DNA from: Flavobacteriaceae bacterium
Lineage (GTDB): Bacteria; Bacteroidota; Bacteroidia; Flavobacteriales; Flavobacteriaceae
Direction of reading: 5' to 3'
DNA length: 64,000 bases
Assembly (NCBI GenBank): GCA_050330515.1
Contig: JBHJNU010000003.1
Location: forward strand, 15,560-79,559
The notes beneath the pieces are model-generated. The model was not told where the DNA came from. It made no database searches and saw only the letters and a list, made by a program, of their open reading frames with translations. The position numbers and the translations under genes were made by a program. Below, in pieces: positions 37,023-56,571 of the stretch. Numbering within the stretch: the first letter of the stretch is position 1; every line of letters begins with the position of its first letter.

Positions 37023-38393
37023 ATGAAGAAGCTATTGTTATCATCTATAGCGTTTGTTTTTTTGCTCACCAGTTGTGGATCTAAAACAAAAGGAGAACTT
37101 ACCGGCGTCCAAGGTAAAAAGTGGTATCCCGAAAAACCTTATGGAATGGAGCTTATTCCTCGCGGTTCGTTCATAATGGGTAAATCTGAAGAAGACCAGG
37201 CCAAAGTTCTTAACGCCCCTACGAAGACAGTGACCGTACGATCCTTCTACATGGACGACACGGAGATTACCAACAGTGAATACCGCCAGTTCGTCGAATG
37301 GGTGAAAGATTCAATTGTTAGAACCAGATTGGCCATGCTTGCCGATGAGCTTGGATTGGGACCAGATGATGGCGGCATTGGCGAATTCGCGTTCAAGGAT
37401 GCCGATACCACAAAGTCTTCCGTTTATGACAAGTACATGTTAGACAACTATTCGGGCATGGGTGAGACCGGTTTCGAAGGCAGAGGGTTGAACAAAGATG
37501 AGGAACTTGTATGGGATACTTCTGATTACCCTGATGAATATTATACAGAGGTTATGGATTCGTTGTACATTCCCGAAGAGGAGTCGTACAATGGTCAGCG
37601 AACCATAGATGTTACCAAATTGAAATACAAATATAGTTGGATGGATATCGAAGCTGCGGCAAGATCTAAAACTGGCAGAAGAAAAGATTTCATCCGTCAA
37701 GAAGAATTAGAGATCTATCCCGATACGACTGTATGGATCCGTGATTTCGAATACTCTTATAACGAGCCGATGCACAATGACTATTTCTGGCATGATGCAT
37801 ATAGCGAATATCCTGTTGTAGGTATTACCTGGAAACAAGCGCAAGCTTTTTGTAATTGGAGGACCAAGTTCAAGAACGACGACCAGAAAAGCAAGGGAAA
37901 ACAGTTTGTGAACAAGTTCAGATTACCTACCGAGGCAGAATGGGAATATGCTGCAAGAGGTGGCATCGAGGGCGGTACCTATCCATGGGGCGGGCCTTAT
38001 GTGATAAGTGATACGGGTTGCTTCATGGCGAACTTTAAACCACAGCGGGGAGATTACGCAGCAGACGCAGCACTCTATACCGTAGAAGCCAAGTCCTACG
38101 AGCCAAACGATTTCAATTTGTACAATATGGCCGGTAACGTTTCTGAATGGACCAACTCAAGCTACGACCCAAGTTCTTATGATTACGTTTCTACCATGAA
38201 CCCTAACGGTGGCGATGGGGCTAATAAGAGAAAGGTAATACGAGGGGGATCTTGGAAAGATGTTGCCTACTTCCTACAAGTTAGTACCAGAGATTATGAG
38301 TATGCCGATTCAGCCCGTAGCTACGTAGGTTTCAGGACCGTTCAAGATTATATGGGCGAGGAAGACTCCCCATCAAGCATCAACGGACTATAA
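37023..38393 (+). CDS. gldK: Gliding motility/T9SS lipoprotein GldK (PorK)
   Basis: Lipobox LTSC, SUMF1 fold (RLPTEAEWEYAARGG, NMAGNVSEW, RGGSW); first gene of KLMN. Confidence 0.95.
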   Translation: MKKLLLSSIAFVFLLTSCGSKTKGELTGVQGKKWYPEKPYGMELIPRGSFIMGKSEEDQAKVLNAPTKTVTVRSFYMDDTEITNSEYRQFVEWVKDSIVRTRLAMLADELGLGPDDGGIGEFAFKDADTTKSSVYDKYMLDNYSGMGETGFEGRGLNKDEELVWDTSDYPDEYYTEVMDSLYIPEEESYNGQRTIDVTKLKYKYSWMDIEAAARSKTGRRKDFIRQEELEIYPDTTVWIRDFEYSYNEPMHNDYFWHDAYSEYPVVGITWKQAQAFCNWRTKFKNDDQKSKGKQFVNKFRLPTEAEWEYAARGGIEGGTYPWGGPYVISDTGCFMANFKPQRGDYAADAALYTVEAKSYEPNDFNLYNMAGNVSEWTNSSYDPSSYDYVSTMNPNGGDGANKRKVIRGGSWKDVAYFLQVSTRDYEYADSARSYVGFRTVQDYMGEEDSPSSINGL

Positions 38394-38585
38394 TATAGTA
38401 GAAGACCGCTATCAAAAGAGACAAGTTATTAGGTATTCCATTTAGTCGATGTGCTACCTAAATTTTATAAAAGCGTAAACACAAAAAGTACCAAATACAA
38501 AATCCAAATACATCCGATTAGCGTCGGAACAAACGTTAACCAAATACTTATTATTAACATTAAATCTTAAATTAAAACTTTTATT

Positions 38586-39236
38586 ATGGCACAGTCAAAA
38601 TCAACAAAGAAACTTTTTAACATGGCCTACGGCCTTGGAGCATCGGTAGTAATTATAGGTGCGTTATTTAAAATCCTTCACTGGGAGTTTGGCCCACTTA
38701 ATGGTGGTATTCTTCTTGCAATAGGTCTTATTACAGAGGCACTTATTTTCGCGATCAGTGCGTTCGAACCCGTAGATGACGAATACGATTGGTCATTGGT
38801 ATACCCAGAATTGGCCGGCGGTGCATCTCAATTGAGAAGCAATGAGGCTGCCGAGATCAAAGAAGCCGAAGCTTCGTTATCGGCTAAATTGGACAACCTT
38901 TTGAAAGAGGCCGGTGTTGATGCTAGCTTGATGGAAAGTCTAGGTACCAGTATCAGAAACTTCGAAGGTGCTGCCAAAGGTATCGCCCCTACAGTCGATG
39001 CAATGCAATCTACCAAGAAATACTCTGATGAAATGGTACATGCCGCGGCTCAAATGGAATCGTTGAACAGTCTTTATAAAGTACAGTTGGAAAGTGCTAG
39101 CAAGCAGGCTTCCGTTAACGCAGAAGTCGTTCAGAACGCAAGCGCCTTAAAAGATCAAATGGCTTCAATGGCTACTAACCTATCTTCATTGAACGGAGTC
39201 TACGGTGGTATGTTATCTGCAATGTCAAGAAACTAA
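38586..39236 (+). CDS. gldL: Gliding motility/T9SS motor protein GldL (PorL)
   Basis: YGLGASVVIIGALFKILH, TEALIF and WSLVYPEL. Confidence 0.97.
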   Translation: MAQSKSTKKLFNMAYGLGASVVIIGALFKILHWEFGPLNGGILLAIGLITEALIFAISAFEPVDDEYDWSLVYPELAGGASQLRSNEAAEIKEAEASLSAKLDNLLKEAGVDASLMESLGTSIRNFEGAAKGIAPTVDAMQSTKKYSDEMVHAAAQMESLNSLYKVQLESASKQASVNAEVVQNASALKDQMASMATNLSSLNGVYGGMLSAMSRN

Positions 39237-39296
39237 TTTAGAACTTTAGTTAAATAAACCCCAAATCAATTATTAATTAAAATCTAAATAGAAAAC

Positions 39297-40859
39297 ATGG
39301 CAGGAGGAAAAGCAACACCACGTCAGAAGATGATCAACCTTATGTATTTGATCTTCATCGCGATGTTGGCCCTAAATATGAGTAAAGAAGTTCTAGCGGC
39401 TTTCGGAATCATGACCGAAAAGATGGAATCTTCTAACGCAAAGACCACGGAAAGTAACCTAGCTTTCTTAGACGGTCTTGCTACAAAAGCGTCTGAAGAT
39501 GCGGCCAAATACGGCCCACTTTATGACAATGCAAAGAAAATCAAAGAAATGTCGCAAGAGTATTTTGATTACCTACAAGCTCTTAAAGATGGCATGATCG
39601 AAGGTCTTGAAGACCCAAAAGATTACCAAGTGATGGACAAGTCTGATTTTCTCGACGGGAAGTTCTGGCAAGGGGATAATCTTACCCCTGAAGGTGAAGA
39701 TTTCCTAAGGCGAATCAATGACTACCGTGATGGTGTTGTGAAGCTTGTCAACAATAAGGATGTTAAATCCTCCGTTGTGGCGCGTTTCCAGACCGGTGAC
39801 GAGAATGGTAAGGTGGAGAACCGTAGCGGCGAAAAGGTCGATTGGCTCAATTATCACTATGAAAGATTTCCTTTAGTAGCTTCTTTGACCAAATTGACCG
39901 CCTTACAAGCGGATATCAGGGCAACCGAAGAAGACGCCTTGAAAACCATGTTGGCCGGTGAGTTGACCGAACAAGTTTCGCTAAAGAACTTTGCCACCTC
40001 ACTGTTCGCCCCTAAATCGGCTTATTATACCGGTGAGAAATATGATGGCAAGATCGTGATCAGTAAAACGGACAACACGTCTACACCTGTAAGGGCCGAG
40101 TTGACCCTTGACGGTAGAAAACTAGCTGAAGGAACCGACTATAAATTGGAAGCCGGTGGCGTAAAAATGTTGATCAGTTCAGGCAACGCCGGCGACCACG
40201 AAGTAGCTGGTACGCTGTTCTTCATGCAAGATGGGGCAGAAATACCGGTTACGGTGAAGAACTCGTTCGCAACAATCTCTAAGCCAAATGCCGCATTGAT
40301 CGCTGCCGACAAGATGAACGTTGTTTATCGTGGGGTAGCCAACCCAATGTCGATCTCGATTCCAGGTATACCTAACAACAAAGTAACCGCATCGGCGCCC
40401 GGTCTGAAAGCAGTTAATGGTAGCCAGTACATAATGAACCCTGGTACCGGAAGAACAGTAACCATAACAGCTTCAGGTACCTTACCAGACGGGCAAAAGG
40501 TTTCTTCTAATTCTGAATTCAGAATTAAGGATATACCAAGACCAGAAGGTTCTATCAGTAAGCAAACAGGCAGTGTGAAATTGCCACGTAACAATGTTGA
40601 GATCGCTACCATAGGCGCCGTATTGGAAGACTTTGATTTTGACCTTAACCTATCGGTAAGCGGCTTCAAGTTCAAAGTGCCCGGCCAACCAACGGTTGTG
40701 GTGAACGGTAGTAAATTGAACGCACAGGCTATCTCTGCCCTAAAGAGGGCCACTAGGGGAGATGCCGTACAGATCTTTGATATTGAAGGTTATATCAGCA
40801 ACAACAAAGAATATAAATTGAAAAAGGTATCTCCGATCATCATCGAGATCACCAATTAA
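39297..40859 (+). CDS. gldM: Gliding motility/T9SS motor protein GldM (PorM)
   Basis: MAGGKATPRQKMINLMYLIFIAMLALN and ADKMNVVYRGVANP. Confidence 0.97.
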   Translation: MAGGKATPRQKMINLMYLIFIAMLALNMSKEVLAAFGIMTEKMESSNAKTTESNLAFLDGLATKASEDAAKYGPLYDNAKKIKEMSQEYFDYLQALKDGMIEGLEDPKDYQVMDKSDFLDGKFWQGDNLTPEGEDFLRRINDYRDGVVKLVNNKDVKSSVVARFQTGDENGKVENRSGEKVDWLNYHYERFPLVASLTKLTALQADIRATEEDALKTMLAGELTEQVSLKNFATSLFAPKSAYYTGEKYDGKIVISKTDNTSTPVRAELTLDGRKLAEGTDYKLEAGGVKMLISSGNAGDHEVAGTLFFMQDGAEIPVTVKNSFATISKPNAALIAADKMNVVYRGVANPMSISIPGIPNNKVTASAPGLKAVNGSQYIMNPGTGRTVTITASGTLPDGQKVSSNSEFRIKDIPRPEGSISKQTGSVKLPRNNVEIATIGAVLEDFDFDLNLSVSGFKFKVPGQPTVVVNGSKLNAQAISALKRATRGDAVQIFDIEGYISNNKEYKLKKVSPIIIEITN

Positions 40860-40873
40860 TAACCCTTGAATTG

Positions 40874-40898
40874 CCGGGTATGCGACAAGCATGCCCGG
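40874..40898 (+). other. Intergenic hairpin between gldM and gldN
   Basis: CCGGGTATGC-GACAA-GCATGCCCGG, 10 bp with one G-U pair, no U-tract. Confidence 0.55.
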
Positions 40899-40920
40899 TT
40901 ACTTTTAAATGATTAGAAAA

Positions 40921-41823
40921 ATGAATTGGAAGAATGTTTTAGTAATCTCAGCAGTTAGTCTACTACCTGTTTCCTTAATGGCGCAAGCGAACATCTTGAA
41001 CGCGAAGAAGCCGCAGGAAATCGGGGTAAAGACCGAAGCACAAAGAGCGGAGGACAATGATGCTCCCTTAAAGTACGGTTACGTCGATGATCGCGATATC
41101 CTTTGGTCGAAGACCGTTTGGGAGGTGATCGACCTTGACGAGCGCGTGAATTTTCCGATGTACTATCCTACCGATACCATTGATATTGGTGCCGATAGAA
41201 GGTCATTGTTCGACGTGCTAATCAAGAACATCAAAAACGGTAAACTTGAAGACGTTTACGTAGATTCATACTTTACCGAGAAAAGGGTGTTCTCTGAGTT
41301 GGCCGCGACCTTGAAAAAACGTGATACGCTAGAGTACGGGTACGAACAGATCAATGCCGGCGAGGAATTGTCTCCTGAATACGTTGTGGAGCGTGAACTT
41401 TCGGCTGCCGATATCGAAGAGTACCGAATAAAAGGTATCTGGTATTTTGACAAACGTCAAGGAGAGCTGAAATACCGTCTTTTAGGTCTTGCTCCCGTTG
41501 CACCAGACGTTAACTTTATCGACGATGAGTCTATGGATCCAAATGATGCCAAAGTTGAACTTTTCTGGGTGTGGTACCCAGGTGCCAGGCAGGTGTTACA
41601 CGAAGCGAAGGTTTTTAACCAACGTAATTCGGCGCAGCCCATATCTTTTGACATGTTGTTGAACGCAAGAAGGTTCCAAGGCACCATTTACAGAGAAGAT
41701 AACGTTCATGGAGACCGCAAGGTAACCGACTATATTGCAGACAATGCTTTGTTCCAATTGCTTGAGGCCAACAGAATTCAAGAGGTCATCAGAGATAGGG
41801 AACAAGATATGTGGAGTTATTAA
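40921..41823 (+). CDS. gldN: Gliding motility/T9SS protein GldN (PorN)
   Basis: DILWSKTVWEVIDLDERVNFPMYYP and IKGIWYFDKRQGELKYRLLG. Start is 40909 or 40921. Confidence 0.96.
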   Translation: MNWKNVLVISAVSLLPVSLMAQANILNAKKPQEIGVKTEAQRAEDNDAPLKYGYVDDRDILWSKTVWEVIDLDERVNFPMYYPTDTIDIGADRRSLFDVLIKNIKNGKLEDVYVDSYFTEKRVFSELAATLKKRDTLEYGYEQINAGEELSPEYVVERELSAADIEEYRIKGIWYFDKRQGELKYRLLGLAPVAPDVNFIDDESMDPNDAKVELFWVWYPGARQVLHEAKVFNQRNSAQPISFDMLLNARRFQGTIYREDNVHGDRKVTDYIADNALFQLLEANRIQEVIRDREQDMWSY

Positions 41824-43440: not shown

Positions 43441-43577
43441 TTGCAAAACTTTGCACAAAGGTACGTTATATCGGCGTTTTTAACCGTAACATTGGTCACA
43501 CATCACGTTTCAGGTTTTTGAAGTTTGAGGTTGCCGAACCTGACCCTGAAGCTAAAGAAATTATAAACCATTTTAGA

Positions 43578-45488
43578 ATGCTGAACATCCATAACCTTTC
43601 TGTTTCTTTTGGAGGTGAATATTTATTTGAGGAAATTTCATTTCGATTGAACGGCGGAGACCGCGTAGGCCTTATCGGTAAGAACGGTGCAGGCAAATCG
43701 ACCCTTTTGAAATTGCTGACCAAAGACATGGCCTTTGATACGGGTACCATAGCCATGGAAAAGGATGTAAAAATAGGTTTCCTGCGCCAGGACATCGATT
43801 TTGAACAAGGTAGAACCGTCTTGGAGGAGGCGTACCAAGCCTTTGAGGAAATCAAATCGTTGGAAAAACAGCTGAACAAGATTAACGAACAATTGACAGA
43901 GCGAACCGATTATGAAAGTGAGCTTTACAACCAACTGATGATCGATTTGAGCGAAATTGGCCACCACTATGAGATACTAGGAGGATATAATTATCAAGGG
44001 GAGACCGAGAAAATACTTCAGGGTCTAGGTTTTAGAAGGGAAGATTTCGATAAAAGAACGGATACCTTTTCGGGGGGGTGGCGAATGCGTATCGAACTGG
44101 CCAAGCTCTTGTTGCAAAGTAATGACGTACTGTTGCTAGATGAGCCTACGAACCACCTAGATATTGAGTCGATCATTTGGCTCGAACAGTTCTTGAAGAA
44201 CTACGCTGGCGCGGTAGTCATCGTTTCGCATGATAAGATGTTCTTAGATAACGTAACCAATAGAACCATTGAAATTTCCTTGGGCCGTATTTACGACTAT
44301 AACAAGCCCTATTCGAAATACCTTGTACTTCGCAACGAGATGAAACAACAGCAGTTGAACGCCCAAAAGAACCAAGAGAAGGAGATTCAGCAGGCAGAGC
44401 GGTTAATCGAGAAGTTCAGGGCGAAATCTACCAAGGCCTCGATGGCACAATCACTGATCAAGAAGCTCGACAAAATCGAACGCATAGAGGTCGATGAAGA
44501 TGACAATAGTGTGATGAATGTTCGTTTCCCAGTTTCCATTGTACCGGGTAGAGTAGTAACCGAAATTGAGAACGTTAGTAAAAGTTACGGTAACAACCAC
44601 GTGCTCGAAGGTATTGATTTACTGATCGAACGTGATAGTAAGACAGCGTTCGTGGGCCAAAACGGACAAGGAAAGTCTACCTTGGCAAAAATTATAGTTG
44701 GCGAGTTATCGCATGGAGGTCATTTAAAGCTAGGGCATAATGTTCAAATTGGCTATTTCGCCCAAAACCAGGCAGAGTACCTCAATGGTGATAAAACCGT
44801 TTTAGATACCATGATCGACGCCGCCAACGAGAAGAACAGGAGCAAAGTGCGCGATATCCTAGGGTCCTTTCTGTTTCGGGGTGACGAGGTTGAAAAATTT
44901 GTAAAGGTGCTTTCAGGAGGAGAACGAAATCGATTGGCCCTTGCCAAGATGTTATTGCAGCCCTTCAACGTGCTGGTAATGGATGAACCAACCAACCATT
45001 TAGATATCAAGTCGAAGAATGTACTGAAACAGGCATTGCAGAATTTCGAGGGAACATTGATATTGGTTTCGCATGATAGGGATTTTCTGCAAGGACTTAC
45101 AAACAAGGTGTATGAGTTCAAAGATCGCAAGATTAAAGAGTACCTGGGCGATATCGATTTTTACCTAGAGCAGCGTAAAGTGGCCGATTTCAGGGCGATT
45201 GAAAAGAAGAGCGAAACACAACAGAAGAAAGAAAAACCCAAGGCCAACGCGAATAGCTTTGAAGACCAAAAACTACTGAAATCGTTAAAGAACAAGTTAA
45301 GCAACCTAGAGGGCGATATTGCGACCCTTGAAAAAGAGCTCGCGGAAATAGATCATGACTTGCTTATGGATTATGATAAAACCATTGCCAAGCCCCACTT
45401 TTTTGATACGTACCAAAAGAAGAAGAAACACTTGGAAGTTTTGATGAAAAACTGGGAAAAACTTACCTTGGAATTGGAGCGTATTTAG
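43578..45488 (+). CDS. ABC-F family ATP-binding protein
   Basis: Two NBDs (GKNGAGKST/FSGGW/DEPTNHLD and GQNGQGKST/LSGGE/DEPTNHLD), no TM segment, C-terminal coiled coil. Start 43578. Confidence 0.96.
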   Translation: MLNIHNLSVSFGGEYLFEEISFRLNGGDRVGLIGKNGAGKSTLLKLLTKDMAFDTGTIAMEKDVKIGFLRQDIDFEQGRTVLEEAYQAFEEIKSLEKQLNKINEQLTERTDYESELYNQLMIDLSEIGHHYEILGGYNYQGETEKILQGLGFRREDFDKRTDTFSGGWRMRIELAKLLLQSNDVLLLDEPTNHLDIESIIWLEQFLKNYAGAVVIVSHDKMFLDNVTNRTIEISLGRIYDYNKPYSKYLVLRNEMKQQQLNAQKNQEKEIQQAERLIEKFRAKSTKASMAQSLIKKLDKIERIEVDEDDNSVMNVRFPVSIVPGRVVTEIENVSKSYGNNHVLEGIDLLIERDSKTAFVGQNGQGKSTLAKIIVGELSHGGHLKLGHNVQIGYFAQNQAEYLNGDKTVLDTMIDAANEKNRSKVRDILGSFLFRGDEVEKFVKVLSGGERNRLALAKMLLQPFNVLVMDEPTNHLDIKSKNVLKQALQNFEGTLILVSHDRDFLQGLTNKVYEFKDRKIKEYLGDIDFYLEQRKVADFRAIEKKSETQQKKEKPKANANSFEDQKLLKSLKNKLSNLEGDIATLEKELAEIDHDLLMDYDKTIAKPHFFDTYQKKKKHLEVLMKNWEKLTLELERI

Positions 45489-45664
45489 CACTTTGTATTT
45501 CTTCACGAAAGGTTCAAGTTAATTATCACAACAGTTTTTTTATATTTCACAACAAAAGCGAACGGTTACGTATCAATTCATGCATTTAGTAAGCATGTAT
45601 ACGAAAATTATCGTTTATTTGTAGGGTAAATCTTATATAAATTGCTGCAACATCAAATCTGACA

Positions 45665-46555
45665 ATGAAAAAGCCACTTCAAATAATAGTATTCCTTTTC
45701 GCTTTTCAAGGTTCATTTGCCCAGGTTCCGGTGAAGGAGAAACAGGTACTGATTGATCTTTACAATAGTACAAATGGCTCGAACTGGACCGAAAGGTGGG
45801 ATTTGTCTAAACCTTTATCAACCTGGAATGGTGTTCAACTGGAGGATAACCATATTGTATCCCTTAACCTAATGAACAATGGTCTAGATGGAGTTCTACC
45901 AAGCTCCATTCATAATCTTAAACGGCTACGGGTGTTGAACTTGGCGTTCAATGCTATTCATGGAGATTTGCCCGAGAATATGGTGCTATTACAAAACTTA
46001 GTTGTCCTAAAGTTGGGAAAGAACCAGATAGAAGGTAGTATTCCTGAAACTATTGGTAACTTAAAGCAGCTAGAGGTTCTAGACCTTTATAGTAATAAGA
46101 TTTCAGGTAACCTACCAAGAAGTCTAGGGGCAATAAAAAGGTTGAAGGTAATTTCGATTTCTGATAATGCCATCGATGGTGCACTACCTGAGGAACTTGG
46201 AAATTTAAAATCCTTGGAACGTTTAGAACTTGCCGACAATAGGATGGAAGGTACCATACCCGAGGCCATAGGTAGCCTTTCTAATTTGAATATCCTTGTA
46301 TTGGCAGAGAACAGGTTAACGGGGAACTTTCCCACCACTGTATTTACATTACCCAAGTTAAGGGTATTGCAGCTACAGAATAATGATTTCGACAAGGCCC
46401 ATTTAAAGAAAAGTGTTCCGATACAGACAGATTTGGCACTTTTTGAGTTCGAGGATACCGTTTTTGATATAGAATCAAAGGCCTTTAAAAAATTATACTC
46501 GAAAAGTGATGTAAGAATGGCCGACACGAAATTTGATGATGATAATGACAATTAG
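45665..46555 (+). CDS. Exported plant-specific-type LRR protein 1 (8 LRRs)
   Basis: Signal peptide ending SFA-Q, N-cap LYNSTNG..W...W.GV, 24-aa repeats LxxLxLxxNxLxGxIP, tail RMADTKFDDDNDN. Confidence 0.9.
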   Translation: MKKPLQIIVFLFAFQGSFAQVPVKEKQVLIDLYNSTNGSNWTERWDLSKPLSTWNGVQLEDNHIVSLNLMNNGLDGVLPSSIHNLKRLRVLNLAFNAIHGDLPENMVLLQNLVVLKLGKNQIEGSIPETIGNLKQLEVLDLYSNKISGNLPRSLGAIKRLKVISISDNAIDGALPEELGNLKSLERLELADNRMEGTIPEAIGSLSNLNILVLAENRLTGNFPTTVFTLPKLRVLQLQNNDFDKAHLKKSVPIQTDLALFEFEDTVFDIESKAFKKLYSKSDVRMADTKFDDDNDN

Positions 46556-46564
46556 TAGATACCT

Positions 46565-47464
46565 ATGAACTTAGAGAACCCATCTTATAAAATACGAATA
46601 TTTTTACTGACCCTTTTCTGTCCCTTCACCTATGGTATGTTGGTTTTTGGGCAGGTATCGGATCAAGAAAAAAAAGTACTCTTAGAACTTTACCATGCAA
46701 CTAGCGGTAAAGACTGGAACAATGTTTGGAATCTGAACCAGCCCCCATCTACTTGGTACGGGGTGAAGGTCGAAGACAACAAAGTAACGGAGCTTAACCT
46801 CTTCAGAAACAATCTATCAGGAGTTCTACCTGAAAGTATAGGCCAGCTTGAACATTTGAAGCACTTGAATCTAGCTTTCAATTCAATAACCGGTTTACTG
46901 CCAAAGGATATCGTCAATTTGTCAAATTTAAAGGTGTTGAAATTGGAAATGAACCGTATCAAAGGAGCACTTCCTGATGATATCGGCAAAATGGGAAATT
47001 TAGAGGAATTTTCCGCATTCAATAATTTTTTGGAAGGGTCTATTCCTGAAAGTCTTGGTTCGATCAAGACCTTGCGCATTTTGAATTTATCAAGCAATAA
47101 TTTGAACGGTTTGATTCCCAAATCTTTGGGAAGTCTAGAAAAATTAGAAAGTCTAGGTCTTTTTGAGAATGTTTTAGAAGGTTCAATTCCCCCCGAAATC
47201 GGAAAGTTGAGTAGGTTAAAAGAACTGGTTTTGGCCAATAATCAGCTGGGCGGGGCTATACCGGCTGAATTTGGCCAATTGGCCAGTTTAAAGGTCTTGC
47301 AGATTCAGAATAACAAATTCGATTCATTCAAGAATCTTGAATATGTGAACCTAAATGCCCTACTTGCGTTCGACTTTGATAGAGACCGTGCTACGGATTT
47401 TAAGCACATAGATTTGAACAAAACAAGAATGGCCGACACGAAGTTCGACGATAACGATAATTGA
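46565..47464 (+). CDS. Exported plant-specific-type LRR protein 2 (8 LRRs)
   Basis: Same architecture; tail RMADTKFDDNDN. Confidence 0.9.
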   Translation: MNLENPSYKIRIFLLTLFCPFTYGMLVFGQVSDQEKKVLLELYHATSGKDWNNVWNLNQPPSTWYGVKVEDNKVTELNLFRNNLSGVLPESIGQLEHLKHLNLAFNSITGLLPKDIVNLSNLKVLKLEMNRIKGALPDDIGKMGNLEEFSAFNNFLEGSIPESLGSIKTLRILNLSSNNLNGLIPKSLGSLEKLESLGLFENVLEGSIPPEIGKLSRLKELVLANNQLGGAIPAEFGQLASLKVLQIQNNKFDSFKNLEYVNLNALLAFDFDRDRATDFKHIDLNKTRMADTKFDDNDN

Positions 47465-47525
47465 TATTCAAGTTTCTAAAATAAAGGGAAAATAAATTCT
47501 TTTTTCTAGTTAGTAGTTTGGTTTT

Positions 47526-47558
47526 AGGGGGTGCGAGAGCATCCCCTATTGGTTTTTT
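47526..47558 (+). terminator. Terminator-like hairpin after LRR protein 2
   Basis: AGGGGGTGC-GAGA-GCATCCCCT (GNRA loop) followed by ATTGGTTTTTT. Confidence 0.65.
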
Positions 47559-47608
47559 ATCGAAGAATGCAAGAAATCTTACTTTACTTATCAGAAAACA
47601 GCAAAATG

Positions 47609-47661
47609 TACGTTAGAAATATACAAAACGTACGAAACGTCCTCACGAATTATACGTTAAA
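47609..47661 (+). promoter_or_regulatory. Three direct repeats with an exact 22-bp period upstream of LRR protein 3 (LytTR-type site candidate)
   Basis: TACGTTAGA (47609), TACGAAACG (47631) and TACGTTAAA (47653). Confidence 0.45.
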
Positions 47662-47718
47662 ACAAGTTTGTCATGCTGTTCTTAATGGCGATGGTACTAT
47701 TTATTGAAATAAAGCCGA

Positions 47719-48600
47719 ATGAAAAAAACATTATTTTTTTTTAACCTGCTGCTCCTTCTTTTCTATTTCGGTTCTGCAAGTGCGCAGATAAGCAAAAAAG
47801 AGAAAAACGCGCTACTGGATCTTTATGAAGCTACCCATGGCGAATTATGGACGATACCTTGGAATTTGAATGTACCTGTCAGCGAATGGCACGGTGTTCA
47901 AATCGACAAGGATCGCGTGGTAGGGCTACGGTTATACAAGAATAATTTAACAGGAACCCTACCGCATAGCCTAAAAAAACTTGAACATCTTGAGGTACTT
48001 GATCTTGGCTTTAATAAGCTTACAGGGCATCTACCCGAAACGCTAACCGAGCTTACCACTTTGAAGGTGTTAAAACTTGAAATGAACCAATTCAAGGGTG
48101 GGCTACCGTCCGACATGTCCAATTGGGTACATCTTCAAGAACTTTCCTTGTTCAATAATTTTTTAGATGGGAGCATTCCAGAAAGTATTGGTAAAGCTCA
48201 AGACTTGGAGGTTATTAATTTTTCAAGTAATATGCTATCAGGAAGGCTTCCAAAAAGTATGGAAGATTTAACGAAACTAAGGAGCTTTGGTATTATGGGC
48301 AACCAATTAGACGGCACCATCGATTTTAGTTTTTCAAAAATGACCAACTTGTCTGAATTGGTCCTGTCTCACAATCATTTTGAAGGACCGTTACCTGAAA
48401 GCATCGCAACATTGAAACAACTTAAATTCGTTCAATTTCAAGGTAATAAATTTGATTCGTTCAGGGGACTCGAAATGATGCAGAGCCTACATCTTTCGGC
48501 TTTTGATAGCGATAATAAGCAGTTGGACAGAAGATATGGCAAAGTAGATTTCAGCCGAACACGGTTGGCGGAAACGAAGTTTTCAGAGGAAGATAACTAA
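47719..48600 (+). CDS. Exported plant-specific-type LRR protein 3 (8 LRRs)
   Basis: Signal peptide ending ASA-Q; same architecture; tail RLAETKFSEEDN. Confidence 0.9.
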   Translation: MKKTLFFFNLLLLLFYFGSASAQISKKEKNALLDLYEATHGELWTIPWNLNVPVSEWHGVQIDKDRVVGLRLYKNNLTGTLPHSLKKLEHLEVLDLGFNKLTGHLPETLTELTTLKVLKLEMNQFKGGLPSDMSNWVHLQELSLFNNFLDGSIPESIGKAQDLEVINFSSNMLSGRLPKSMEDLTKLRSFGIMGNQLDGTIDFSFSKMTNLSELVLSHNHFEGPLPESIATLKQLKFVQFQGNKFDSFRGLEMMQSLHLSAFDSDNKQLDRRYGKVDFSRTRLAETKFSEEDN

Positions 48601-48627
48601 AAGCTAGCTCAAAATTAAAAGTATTTT

Positions 48628-48661
48628 AAAAAGGGATGTGCCTATCGCATTTCCTTTTTTT
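48628..48661. terminator. Probable bidirectional terminator
   Basis: A-tract, imperfect stem GGGATGTG/CGCATTTCC, T-tract, between convergent genes. Confidence 0.55.
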
Positions 48662-48705
48662 ATCCTTTAAATTCTTGATAACCGATTTTCTTTAACAAAT
48701 CGGAA

Positions 48706-49386
48706 TCAATCAACGATTTCGATCTTGCCACCGAAAACCTTGTCCTTTTCCACATCTTTTGGGTTTCCATAAATATAGATGTAACCTCCTGCGCGAACTT
48801 TGGCATTCACTTTTTGAGAAGCGTTGACGTCTGCGCGGCCACCAGCATTCACCACCACTGTAGTTTCTTCTGTACTTAGGGCTTTATTGTAGATTTTTCC
48901 TCCGGTATTCACCATTACCTCTTGAAGCCTTGCATTGCCTGTTAGGGTAACCTCACTGCCTGATATAGACTTTGCATAAAGATCCGCAATAGCTACATTC
49001 AAATCGATGACACCGCCTTCCTGTGCTTTGATTTCAACCCGGTCGCCCTTTATGGTTTCATCTGATTTTATCTTGGCGTTTTCGTTGGCATCAATAAGTT
49101 CAAGGGGCTCGGTGAAGTACAGGGTGGCTTTCGCTTCGTTGCCATCCATAAAATTGTCGAACTCCATTTTAATTTTAAGTATACCATCAGTGTTCGAAAT
49201 ACTTACTTCATCCTTATCATCGCCACTGATAACTAACTTATTTTCAGTACTCTTGACCAAAGTCACCACAATACGATCGTAGGCTTTTACCATGGTGAAC
49301 TTATCGAGTTTCTTGGTATTCTCTTTTTGTGCAAATACAGTAGACATAAGTGCGAGGAGTAGCAAAGGTAAGATTGTGTTTTTCAT
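48706..49386 (-). CDS. DUF2807/head-GIN-type beta-helix protein, exported
   Basis: Signal peptide ending VFA-Q, repeated short beta strands (AQEGGVIDL, SISGSEVTL, NTGGKI, NAGGRA, RAGGYIYIYGNPK). Start 49386 or 49404. Confidence 0.8.
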   Translation of the reverse strand: MKNTILPLLLLALMSTVFAQKENTKKLDKFTMVKAYDRIVVTLVKSTENKLVISGDDKDEVSISNTDGILKIKMEFDNFMDGNEAKATLYFTEPLELIDANENAKIKSDETIKGDRVEIKAQEGGVIDLNVAIADLYAKSISGSEVTLTGNARLQEVMVNTGGKIYNKALSTEETTVVVNAGGRADVNASQKVNAKVRAGGYIYIYGNPKDVEKDKVFGGKIEIVD

Positions 49387-49591
49387 TGTTTTCATTTTAC
49401 GCAATTGTTGAATGATCCAGATGTACCATGAAGTGTGCCAAATTTAGTATAATCGGCCAAAATTTACACGAAATCTTTCCATTGATTTCGAATAGATTTG
49501 AATGCGATGCTTTTTAGGTTGTAAAGAATGATTGTTTAAAAGGAAATCATTGGAAAGGTTTATTTTTATATTTTTAATGAAAATACAATTG

Positions 49592-55140: not shown

Positions 55141-56571
55141 ATGGCTTCAAACCCTAAAAATGGCTGGGCCGATTATGCGATTTTTGGGCTGTCGGTATTC
55201 TTGATTTTCTGTTTGATTTTTGAATCGCACATCGCCTTGCCTACACTGGTGGCATGGTTGGGGCGATGGCATCCTATGGTGCTCCACTTTCCGATCGTAC
55301 TCTTGTTGATCGCCATTTTTTTAGGTTTTACCGGGAAACAAATCCCAAGGGTATTGCTCACAACAGCCGTCCTGTCCGCCTTGATAACCGCCATATCGGG
55401 ATTCTTTTTGGCTACGGGATCGGGTACAAGGGGCAATCTGCTCTTCTGGCACCAATGGCTAGGTGCCGCCACCGCTTTGATCGCCGCACTATGGTATTAC
55501 GCGGAGGGTAGGGGTATGGCAAGGTCTAGCTACGCCAAAAGCCTACCAATGGGGTTGGCGGTTTTAATAGGATTCACGGGCCATTATGGTGGAATGGTGA
55601 CCCACGGTGAAGAGTACTTGGCATTTCCAACAAATAGTACAGACCATGTAATGCCAGAAAACCCATTGATCTATACAGATGTCGTAGCTCAAATTTTAGA
55701 TAATCATTGCGTAAAATGCCATAACCAGAATAAATTGAAAGGTGAATTGTTGATGACCAATATGGCAGGGCTCTTAAAAGGCGGTGAAAGCGGCAAGACC
55801 CTTATTCCTGGAAATTATGAGGAAAGTGAGTTGATCGTTCGCATGCACCTTCCCTTAGAAGATGAAAAGCACATGCCGCCCGAAGGCGAAACACCCTTAT
55901 CGCAGAACCAGATCAAGATTCTAGAGCGTTGGATCGCCCTAGGAGCTTCTGATACCTTGAAGTTGAGCCACTTGGATAATAATGAGCCGTTGGTCGCACA
56001 TTTAAATAGTTTGATAAAACCAGATCCGAGCGAAAAATGGAAGCTCTTGCCCGCCGTTGCCGATAGCACGATTAGCCGATTGAGTTCTGATTACCTAACC
56101 ATTCGCCGATTGGCCGGCGGGGCAAATGCGTTAAGCATCAATATGTATATGCCACCGGCATATGACCCAAGTTTGATCACGGGTTTAAAACCGCTCGCCA
56201 AAAATATAATCGAAATGGATGTTAGTGGTCTACCCTTAGGTCAAGAAGAGATGAACCTGATAGCTTCCTGTCAAAACTTAGAATGGCTAGAAGTCGATAG
56301 AACGCCCATTACCGATGTGGAAGCGGACACCCTAAAGAGTTTGTCCAACTTGAGAATACTGAAGATTTATGATACAAAAATTGGAAACAAAAGTATTCCC
56401 GTCTTAAAGAAGATACAATCCCTTCGGCAGGTATATCTTTGGAACACGTCAATTTCTCCAGATGTTTTGAATACCCTTAAAAAAGAAAATCCAACTCTTT
56501 TTGTAGATACAGGGATCGATCAAGAACTGCAGACTTTGTTTACTGCAAAAGATTCCATTCCGAAAATCTAG
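55141..56571 (+). CDS. DUF2231-like membrane domain + cytochrome c + LRR protein
   Basis: HPMVLHFPIVLL and about 4-5 TM helices, CVKCH heme motif with HMPP distal Met, C-terminal LRRs (LEWLEV, LRILKI, LRQVYLWNT). Confidence 0.85.
   Translation: MASNPKNGWADYAIFGLSVFLIFCLIFESHIALPTLVAWLGRWHPMVLHFPIVLLLIAIFLGFTGKQIPRVLLTTAVLSALITAISGFFLATGSGTRGNLLFWHQWLGAATALIAALWYYAEGRGMARSSYAKSLPMGLAVLIGFTGHYGGMVTHGEEYLAFPTNSTDHVMPENPLIYTDVVAQILDNHCVKCHNQNKLKGELLMTNMAGLLKGGESGKTLIPGNYEESELIVRMHLPLEDEKHMPPEGETPLSQNQIKILERWIALGASDTLKLSHLDNNEPLVAHLNSLIKPDPSEKWKLLPAVADSTISRLSSDYLTIRRLAGGANALSINMYMPPAYDPSLITGLKPLAKNIIEMDVSGLPLGQEEMNLIASCQNLEWLEVDRTPITDVEADTLKSLSNLRILKIYDTKIGNKSIPVLKKIQSLRQVYLWNTSISPDVLNTLKKENPTLFVDTGIDQELQTLFTAKDSIPKI

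Follow-up and report, generated by a model that had tools for sequence, protein, structure and literature searches.

Organization of the locus

The window, which is the whole stretch of 64,000 nucleotides that was analysed, carries a tandem trio of leucine-rich repeat (LRR) genes of a marine flavobacterium, named here LRR1, LRR2 and LRR3 (Table 1). LRR1 and LRR2 are probably co-transcribed, since LRR2 starts only 9 nt past the LRR1 stop codon. The terminator-like hairpin past LRR2 closes this transcription unit, and LRR3, which is followed by a hairpin of its own, appears to be a separate unit. The one match to a known RNA element, Plasmid_RNAIII, falls on a terminator hairpin, has 31.8 bits against a gathering score of 60, and was discarded as spurious. 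An apparent ACGAA..TTAT.CGTT element, considered as a promoter or operator common to LRR1, LRR3 and the genes of the small proteins described below, failed to reproduce.

The ABC-F ATPase gene lies directly upstream of the LRR gene or genes in 18 of 20 loci of other genera, and in most carrier genera it is the LRR2-type orthologue that stands beside it. The type IX secretion (T9SS)/gliding core operon is found three genes upstream of the LRR genes. Both adjacencies are taken as context only. The neighbours of the LRR locus (ABC-F, a Zn-finger protein, an FAD oxidoreductase, MarR-RND-TolC, DUF2807, an FGE-like protein and YceI) were considered as partners and rejected as inherited synteny only, and the same applies to the neighbours of the small genes (TerC, HPF and a 106-aa helical protein that has no Pfam match above threshold). 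The conserved neighbours of the two kinds of loci include no peptide-receptor-like gene.

Table 1. Coordinates in the window of the LRR genes, their C-terminal elements and adjacent features
Feature	Position	Strand	Description
gldK-gldL-gldM-gldN	37023..41823	+	T9SS/gliding core operon; three genes upstream of the LRR genes, conserved synteny
ABC-F ATPase	43518..45488	+	Immediate upstream neighbour of the LRR gene(s)
LRR1	45665..46555	+	296 aa; signal peptide, Cys-free N-cap, 8 x 24-aa LRR (aa 64-255), linker, tail
LRR1 tail	46514..46552	+	RMADTKFDDDNDN
LRR2	46565..47464	+	299 aa; LRR repeats aa 74-265; canonical LRR2-type orthologue
LLAFDFD	47360..47380	+	Last beta-strand of the LRR2 solenoid, the real C-terminal cap
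LRR2 tail	47426..47461	+	RMADTKFDDNDN; AF2 pLDDT ~50
Hairpin past LRR2	47525..47548	+	Terminator-like; 10-bp stem, then T-run
LRR3	47719..48600	+	293 aa; LRR repeats aa 67-258; LRR3-type subfamily (FDSD cap)
LRR3 tail	48562..48597	+	RLAETKFSEEDN
Hairpin past LRR3	48633..48653	+	Terminator-like

The LRR proteins

Each protein contains eight LxxLxLxxNxL units, which begin at residues 64, 74 and 67 of LRR1, LRR2 and LRR3, respectively, and are spaced by exactly 24 residues. The Pfam families LRR_8, LRR_1, LRR_4 and LRR_14 match strongly, with E-values of 1e-14 to 1e-25. The open reading frames, the Pfam matches and the repeat phase agree with the original prediction of three paralogues of 293-299 aa, all with a signal peptide, a Cys-free N-cap and 8 repeats of 24 aa. 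The N-cap keeps the helix-plus-W/G motif and has no match to PF08263 (LRRNT_2, the cap with a Cys pair) at E<=0.01; it is a Cys-free variant of the cap, and the mature chains are free of Cys as well.

Signal peptidase cleavage is predicted from the sequence at SFA|Q in LRR1, VFG|Q in LRR2 and ASA|Q in LRR3, and AQ is the consensus around the predicted site in the alignment of the LRR family. According to the Q-rule, cleavage of Bacteroidota Sec/SPI substrates exposes an N-terminal Gln (PMC5837995, PMC10653852), and LRR1-3 as well as the small tailed proteins would conform to it. A lipobox is absent from all three proteins: LRR1 and LRR3 have no Cys at all, and the sole Cys of LRR2, in TLFC|P, has Phe at position -1. 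The expected lack of a T9SS C-terminal domain (CTD), a catalytic domain and a transmembrane anchor was borne out by Pfam and NCBIfam at E<=0.01. LRR1-3 are predicted to be plant-type LRR binding proteins, exported by Sec and signal peptidase I.

With the ectodomains of plant LRR receptor kinases and with polygalacturonase-inhibiting proteins (PGIP) the three proteins share the 24-residue LxxLxLxxNxLxGxIP repeat in exact phase, the N-terminal capping helix and the curved solenoid. The top Foldseek matches are the ectodomains of MIK2, PSKR, PEPR1, FLS2 and HAESA (E ~1e-15, 25-38% identity), and the TM-score against PGIP, normalised to the target, is 0.67. These matches, the repeat phase and the Pfam results support the earlier assignment to the plant-type class, although of the two hallmarks of the plant-specific (PS) class LRR1-3 have the 24-residue repeat and not the Cys-pair N-cap. 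They differ from the plant proteins in having only 8 repeats, caps without Cys pairs and neither a transmembrane segment nor a kinase or island domain. They are also bacterial, with predicted Sec/SPI export and a Gln past the predicted cleavage site, and end in an RMADTKF-acidic tail, which the plant proteins do not have.

Similarity to the Xanthomonas type III effectors XopL, XopAC/AvrAC and XopAE is limited to the LRR part. The NCBIfam scores are 42-92 bits, with family cut-offs of 450-600, and there is no E3-ligase or Fic domain, so that membership was rejected. Unlike these effectors, LRR1-3 bear Sec signal peptides, and a type III secretion system is not known in this lineage. Two further groups, the tandem LRR paralogue arrays of Flavobacterium psychrophilum and the BspA-type LRR proteins, are considered to be surface adhesins. 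The arrays resemble the present trio in being tandem exported LRR paralogues of a flavobacterium but use another, BspA-like, LRR class, and the RMADTKF tail is not known from these proteins.

From the same phylum come the LRR surface proteins with a T9SS CTD, which have a homologous plant-type LRR domain and a signal peptide. Five related Bacteroidota LRR proteins (P0059, P0060, P0087, P0097 and P0120) carry PF18962. The T9SS-CTD proteins are 445-524 aa long and end in Ig-like domains plus a CTD of ~80 aa, whereas in LRR1-3 a cap and spacer of ~30 residues are followed by a tail of 12-13 residues. Only ~45 residues follow the last full repeat, AF2 places no domain there, and Pfam/NCBIfam find no match in LRR1-3 to the T9SS cargo CTDs (PF18962, TIGR04183 and TIGR04131, Ig-like domains of ~70-100 aa).

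Conservation and predicted flexibility of the C-terminal tail

The tail has the consensus R-hydrophobic-A-[DE]-T-K-F-[ED]-[ED], followed by 2-16 further, mostly acidic, residues. It is carried by 51 of the 58 members of the LRR family in the public protein collection, in which 4-18 residues (median 6) with a mean net charge of -3.9 follow the Phe. No other segment of the LRR family is as conserved as the tail. In 50 family members, the frequency of the top residue is 0.80 in the tail core, 0.66 in the LRR and 0.39 in the linker; the entropy is 0.95 in the tail core and 2.66 in the linker, and the Arg is invariant (50 of 50). The near-invariance first noticed in the three tails of this locus is, therefore, conservation far beyond chance. 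The 18-nt identity between LRR1 and LRR2, AAGAATGGCCGACACGAA, was found again (46513-46530 and 47425-47442); by chance, 0 such matches would be expected. Across genera, the codons of the tail differ at every synonymous position. This indicates selection for the peptide itself rather than for its DNA, and rules out a DNA-level cause of the conservation. The motif is undescribed in the literature, Pfam and NCBIfam, and a full-text literature search with the peptide strings and with the LRR proteins of the carrier genera returned nothing relevant.

The segment between the repeats and the tail, originally described as a divergent linker of ~35 aa, consists of two parts, and the description holds for the second of them only. 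The solenoid receives its last beta-strand from the first ~18 residues, FxxLxxxxxxxLLxFD[YF]D, a semi-conserved part; in this strand the F and both D are 94-96% conserved. The next ~13 residues are truly variable. In the AF2 model of LRR2, built with an alignment of 50 sequences, the pLDDT is 97-99 to about residue 260, the last strand is formed by residues 268-270 (FDF), and the pLDDT drops to 59, 50 and 54 over residues 271-299. The tail is accordingly modelled as flexible and as not packing on the solenoid, although low pLDDT is weak evidence, since AF2 can overlook intramolecular contacts that are real.

A second family with the same tail

A search for non-LRR carriers of the motif, as suggested in the original prediction, found the same tail at the end of an unrelated family of exported three-helix proteins of ~111 aa. 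The copies in this genome are on contig C126, where a tandem pair comprises a 113-aa exported non-LRR protein, with the end LLADTKFEDIEE, and a paralogue that ends in FIVETKLEDD... When the LRR and small families are compared by hhalign, just 19 tail columns align (P=6.6e-6), and the heptapeptide ADTKFED is identical at the same terminal position in LRR and small all-helical proteins. The small family comprises ~177 clusters at 50% identity, has no Pfam match and consists, among the matches listed, of standalone proteins of 62-169 aa. AF2 predicts helices at residues 52-74, 79-92 and 96-106, and its confidence drops again at the tail (61, then 44). There is no significant PDB match to the fold, the best being generic three-helix bundles (E=0.17). 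Cleavage is predicted at AHA|Q and LFA|Q, and the Gln is invariant in the alignment of the small family. The strict tail motif is present in 27 of 150 representatives of the wider small family, in which the tail has drifted considerably; the constraint on it thus differs between the LRR and small families.

Within 12 residues of the C-terminus the generalised motif occurs in exactly 5 ORFs of this genome, the three LRR and two small ones, compared with 0.58 expected by chance, and all 5 have signal peptides. Among 201 Flavobacteriaceae genomes the LRR-tail family is found in 33 and the small family in 26, both being present in 24 (Fisher p=1.6e-21, a statistic that ignores kinship). Much of this co-occurrence may stem from common descent within one subclade. 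The tail is found in about 16% of Flavobacteriaceae genera. A class-level search of 401 genomes, ~387 of them outside Flavobacteriaceae, detected no C-terminal motif in the ~387 genomes of other families; all 8 matches there fall inside unrelated proteins (M16 peptidase, glycosyltransferase, flavoprotein) or in tiny ORFs. Of the in-family genomes in that search (13 sampled, mostly of one heavily sampled genus), this genome is the only one with a tail match. The sole family-level match that is neither LRR nor small, considered as an extra carrier family, has the motif inside an 896-aa protein, and short 'fragment' matches in one genome are contig-end artefacts of a 7-copy expansion. The tail is confined to one bacterial family, where it is found on two unrelated exported families.

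Is the tail a part of the LRR fold?

The null expectation, that the tail is an LRR C-cap which packs on the last repeat and occurs in orthologues only, failed on both counts, because AF2 leaves the tail unpacked and the same tail ends an all-helical non-LRR family. The two results uphold the proposal of an independent, undescribed element outside the LRR fold. A broader structural role, in which the tail is a C-cap or a solubility or stability tail without a partner and the small family acquired its copy by convergence or old recombination without a shared function, is improbable. By inspection of the sequence, FKDINFSKTRM can be taken for a degenerate LxxLxLxx(N/T)xL unit, but this unit would begin just 13 residues past the previous strand, and a solenoid turn needs more. 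Pairing is conceivable between the invariant Arg and the DxD of the FDYD strand, itself nearly invariant, and acidic tails commonly aid solubility; against this, the tail is unordered in AF2 and is conserved above the level of the LRR scaffold, and a beta-solenoid cap would hardly account for ADTKFED at the same end of an all-helical protein.

Concave faces of the three subfamilies

LRR1, LRR2 and LRR3 represent three old paralogous subfamilies, LRR1 being a member of the LRR1-type one. The identity of their concave faces is 0.28-0.56, and the tails, kept by all three subfamilies, are nearly identical. In 34 orthologues of the LRR2 type, for which alone conservation within a subfamily was computed, the concave face is conserved to the same degree as the hydrophobic core (entropy 0.50, compared with 1.95 at convex positions). 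A face that is conserved among LRR2-type orthologues and differs between paralogues supports the earlier suggestion of diversified binders. The divergence of the faces and the retention of the tail in all subfamilies fit common docking joined to different binding functions.

The best structural matches of the LRR proteins are ectodomains of plant peptide-hormone receptors (MIK2, PSKR, HSL1, PEPR1, FLS2, PXY and HAESA; E ~1e-15 to 1e-13), which hold extended peptides on the concave face. The tail itself might be such a ligand. It could bind the groove in cis or head-to-tail between LRR proteins, resulting in auto-inhibition or chaining, or the small tailed protein could be the cognate ligand of LRR 'receptors', as peptide hormones are in plants. 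The small family is almost never found without the LRR family, which occurs alone in 9 genomes, and the three paralogues agree at several concave positions, namely F in repeat 2, V and K in repeat 3 and two Q in repeat 8. Near-identical tails are, however, difficult to reconcile with faces of such low identity; the face is net acidic or neutral (2-3 K+R, 4-5 D+E) and suits an acidic tail poorly, and the tail is undocked in the AF2 model. No covariation signal could be extracted, the tail being nearly invariant. A groove ligand is, on balance, unlikely. Of the original interpretation, the independent functional tail and the diversified binders stand, and the tethered ligand is weakened.

A probable role in docking or sorting

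The tail is probably an undescribed docking or sorting tag. The preferred reading, to which we assign a probability of about 0.4, is that of a docking peptide recognised in trans by a common partner in the cell envelope. Past the FD[YF]D cap strand and the variable spacer of ~13 residues, each protein ends in the tail, a short linear motif that is predicted to be flexible. The envelope partner would grip it in trans; probably the tail would add a beta-strand to this partner, its conserved Ala, Thr and Phe would share one face, and its acidic run would steer the binding. One site could in this way tether different modules, the three LRR proteins with their separate specificities as well as the unrelated three-helix protein of the small family. 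Short, flexible, conserved terminal peptides on otherwise unrelated proteins, with one partner presumed, also include the TonB box and the acidic C-terminal tail of SSB, where an acidic run is joined with a key Phe. The comparison with the RMADTKF tail is by way of working only; the tail has no sequence similarity to either, is extracytoplasmic, and its binding to a partner is presumed. An argument against docking is that two carrier families are few for a general docking or sorting system.

Alternatively, the tail could be a signal for sorting, secretion or processing that is read once, for export beyond the periplasm to the surface, vesicles or medium, or for cutting by a protease, for instance after the Phe, and that holds the protein at no site. 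The position of the motif at the extreme C-terminus of two unrelated Sec-exported families agrees with such a signal, as does the presence of the PF18962 CTD at the equivalent position of P0059, P0060, P0087 and P0097, and the residues past the Phe are variable and acidic, as expected of a discarded pro-piece. The conserved synteny with gldKLMN points in the same direction, but the intervening FAD oxidoreductase and ABC-F have no role in secretion, and the synteny may be plain inheritance. T9SS is regarded as general in Flavobacteriaceae, whereas the tail is restricted to a small part of the genera, and two client families are very few for a secretion route. The solved T9SS CTDs are reported to be seven-stranded Ig-like sandwiches whose architecture is essential (PMC11285876); on that description a tail of ~13 residues could not form a CTD, and no CTD model matches. 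The hydrophobic or basic segment of PEP-CTERM, LPXTG and GlyGly-CTERM signals is missing too: no hydrophobic segment follows the tail Phe, and no signal of the sortase or exosortase type was matched. On balance, a sorting signal is less likely than docking.

Few post-Sec addressing routes of Bacteroidota are known, namely lipoprotein export signals, T9SS C-terminal domains and beta-barrel signals. If docking in trans is correct, a portable C-terminal peptide on unrelated exported proteins would extend these routes by a new kind of docking or sorting element in the envelope; if the tail is merely a stabilising appendage, the finding shrinks to a well-annotated pair of lineage-specific families. 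The tail also offers a way to approach the role that plant-type LRR proteins play in marine flavobacteria associated with algae, in which three conserved, distinct binding faces suggest three defined ligands. More speculatively, the RxADTKF-acidic tail could serve marine Flavobacteriaceae as a new extracytoplasmic address tag, specific to this lineage and read by a dedicated envelope receptor that positions or exports a few binding proteins. In a variant of this proposal, the tailed three-helix protein and the LRR proteins would pair as peptide and receptor in a bacterial analogue of plant LRR signalling.

O-glycosylation of the tail Thr was considered separately. The general O-glycosylation sequon of Bacteroidota is D-(S/T)-X, with any residue but R, H, K, W or Y as X (PMC10897501). 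The tail has D-T-K; even the broadest form of the sequon that has been published does not admit Lys as X, and the candidate was rejected. Upstream of the tail, the invariant D-T-[M/L] of the small family fits the sequon.

The LRR trio and its C-terminal tail

The window encodes three tandem exported proteins of the plant LRR type, LRR1, LRR2 and LRR3. All three give strong LRR matches in Pfam. In agreement with the original prediction, they have a signal peptide, eight LxxLxLxxNxL units in exact 24-residue phase and a mature chain free of Cys; there is no lipobox, and Pfam and NCBIfam detect no catalytic domain, TM anchor or T9SS C-terminal domain. The near-invariant tail and an 18-nt identity between LRR1 and LRR2 were also confirmed. 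The three C-termini are RMADTKFDDDNDN, RMADTKFDDNDN and RLAETKFSEEDN, respectively. As a bacterial plant-type LRR, the LRR domain is unremarkable, and its fold is matched by Foldseek to ectodomains of plant peptide-hormone receptors and to PGIP. What is undescribed is the common tail, together with the small family that co-occurs with it: the motif is found nowhere in the searched literature or in the Pfam and NCBIfam models.

Features of the window and of the second tail-bearing locus
Feature	Position	Strand	Remark
gldK-gldL-gldM-gldN operon	37023-41823		complete; all four genes above NCBIfam cut-offs
LRR1	45665-46555	+	296 aa
18 nt identical to LRR2	46513-46530		in LRR1
LRR2	46565-47464	+	299 aa
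18 nt identical to LRR1	47425-47442		in LRR2
Hairpin after LRR2	47525-47548		strong, terminator-like
LRR3	47719-48600	+	293 aa
Hairpin after LRR3	48633-48653		terminator-like
PSCyt1/LRR_8 protein	55141-56571		476 aa
Two tandem small-family genes	contig C126:1068-1890	-	outside the window; also loci L057, L083

The signal peptides end in A or G followed by Q (SFA-Q in LRR1, VFG-Q in LRR2, ASA-Q in LRR3), and the putative cleavage sites agree with the 'Q-rule' that describes signal peptidase I substrates of Bacteroidota (PMC5837995, PMC10653852). Since only 9 nt separate the LRR1 stop from the LRR2 start and hairpins follow LRR2 and LRR3, the likely transcription units are LRR1-LRR2 and a separate LRR3. 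A sub-threshold Rfam match to Plasmid_RNAIII (47460-47553; 31.8 bits against a gathering score of 60) coincides with the LRR2 hairpin and is almost certainly spurious. The G+C content of the region containing the trio and a DUF2807 gene (45000-49500) falls to 0.375-0.39, compared with 0.42-0.45 in the flanks, which may be due to the Asn-, Lys- and Leu-rich composition or to a foreign origin of the LRR genes.

Relation of the tail to the LRR fold

The tail had been thought to follow a divergent linker of about 35 residues. This is correct for the last ~13 residues only; the first ~18 are semi-conserved and supply the last beta-strand (…LLxFD[YF]D), so that the truly variable spacer is ~13 residues long. 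In an AlphaFold2 model of LRR2 built on a 50-sequence family alignment, the solenoid has a pLDDT of 97-99 up to about residue 260, the last strand comprises residues 268-270 (FDF of LAFDFD), and for residues 271-299 the pLDDT drops to 59, 50 and 54. No segment of the protein is better conserved than the tail core (top-residue frequency 0.80, entropy 0.95 in the 50 sequences; LRR region 0.66 and 1.42, spacer 0.39 and 2.66), and its Arg is invariant (50/50). The tail codons vary across genera at every synonymous position, which points to selection on the peptide. A segment that is highly conserved yet unpacked in the model has the hallmark of a short linear motif, one that would become ordered on a partner. 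The possibility that the tail is the LRR C-cap is contradicted by this lack of packing and by an all-helical non-LRR protein that carries the tail too. The occurrence on an all-helical protein, and conservation of the tail above the level of the scaffold, also make a purely structural role improbable. O-glycosylation of the tail Thr is unlikely, as D-T-K falls outside the broadest published sequon (PMC10897501).

A second family carrying the tail

Whether the tail also occurs on non-LRR proteins was asked in the original prediction. When the 13,012 ORFs of the 3.45-Mb assembly were all scanned by regex and PSSM, the tail was found on the three LRR proteins and on one 113-aa exported non-LRR protein. 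The latter is encoded on contig C126 and terminates in …KVLLADTKFEDIEE, and the copy in its tandem paralogue is degenerate (…FIVETKLEDD…). The motif generalised from both families lies within 12 residues of the C-terminus in exactly five ORFs of this genome, against 0.58 expected by chance, and each of these ORFs encodes a signal peptide.

In a set of 1.84 billion proteins the small family accounts for ~177 clusters at 50% identity, and no Pfam model matches it; the 150 matches listed are all standalone proteins of 62-169 aa. The predicted fold consists of three helices, with confidence falling at the tail as in LRR2, and has no significant PDB neighbours. When the LRR C-terminal region is compared with the small family by hhalign, only the 19 tail columns align (P=6.6e-6). 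Together with the other evidence of portability, this sequence comparison indicates that two otherwise unrelated exported families have a terminal peptide in common. Across the small family as a whole the tail is less constant (consensus hydrophobic-A/V-D/E-T/I-x-F-E-D/E), and its strict form is present in 27 of the 150 representatives.

Small-family proteins of ~111-121 aa have a conserved core, (I/L)(I/L)DT(M/L)xIS...RKRRKLLKDLYKN, whose invariant D-T-(M/L) matches the Bacteroidota O-glycosylation sequon. Their ...KDLYKN... ahead of the tail resembles the ...(F/L)xxLY(K/S)(N/K)... found a few residues before the tail in C-termini of the LRR1 subfamily (window 46475-46552; locus L004:646-1533). 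The module common to these two groups may thus span ~25 residues rather than 12; the hhalign alignment does not reach this upstream segment.

Distribution

Of 201 Flavobacteriaceae genomes, 24 contain exact ADTKFED, on 25 LRR proteins of ~295 aa, two small proteins and one spurious internal site; the reversed-pattern control gave no matches. Searched with a profile that covers the LRR C-terminus and the tail, 33 of these genomes show the LRR family, always in open frames of ~290-360 aa except for contig-end fragments, and a profile search finds the small family in 26. Both are present in 24 genomes, the LRR family alone in nine and the small family alone in two, one a weak match (Fisher p=1.6e-21, uncorrected for phylogeny). 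No C-terminal tail was found in ~387 genomes from the other families in the class, where every match to a looser pattern was either internal to an unrelated protein or in a tiny ORF. Named public homologues, from Maribacter and Cellulophaga, carry no annotation beyond hypothetical or LRR protein. The tail is present on 51 of 58 LRR-family members of the protein collection, and most of the others come from truncated or frameshifted contigs. One genome (G046) has seven matches to the LRR C-terminus-plus-tail profile (e.g. C86:16562-16750, C73:35324-35512, C102:1488-1673), several of which break contigs, suggesting recent expansion of the LRR family in its genus.

Possible function of the tail

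In a tree of the LRR domain only, LRR1, LRR2 and LRR3 fall into three separate clades, each of which spans multiple genomes and keeps the tail. Among 34 orthologues of the LRR2 subfamily, the solvent-exposed concave face equals the hydrophobic core in conservation (entropy 0.50 vs 0.42), and convex positions are variable (1.95). Concave-face identity between the three paralogues is 0.28-0.56. This is most simply read as a distinct, conserved ligand for each paralogue and one tail function common to all three. Binding of the tail in the groove of the LRR, either in cis or as part of the small protein, is unlikely, given that the concave faces are divergent and non-basic while the tail is identical, and that AF2 leaves the tail undocked.

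The preferred reading, with a probability of about 0.4, is that the tail is a docking peptide common to several exported binding modules, which a putative partner would recognise in trans. The conserved Ala, Thr and Phe stand at alternate positions, as expected of a strand joining the partner's sheet, and are followed by the acidic run; the tail may bind in this manner. A one-time sorting or processing signal is a less probable alternative, against which speak the small number of client families and the lack of any CTD-like domain in Pfam and NCBIfam searches (PMC11285876).

Gene neighbourhood

The conserved block runs hutG-like, gldK, gldL, gldM, gldN, FAD oxidoreductase, Zn-finger protein (opposite strand), ABC-F and one to three LRR genes, usually followed by MarR-MFP-RND-TolC, DUF2807, an FGE-like gene and YceI. 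Of 20 loci in other genera, 16-18 have the LRR block, and at least 16 genera keep the order from gldKLMN to LRR. The LRR locus of this genome lacks the efflux cluster and contains three copies of the LRR gene. The striking closeness to the T9SS core operon is treated as inherited synteny because the tail families occur in only ~16% of genera and the intervening genes are unrelated to secretion. The small genes lie, in conserved synteny, between TerC and a ribosome-hibernation-factor gene, and no evident partner was found among their neighbours. Elsewhere in the window, and unrelated to the tail family, is a protein with a Planctomycete cytochrome C domain (PSCyt1) and a weak LRR_8 match, encoded after DUF1549/DUF1553 and DUF1501 genes.
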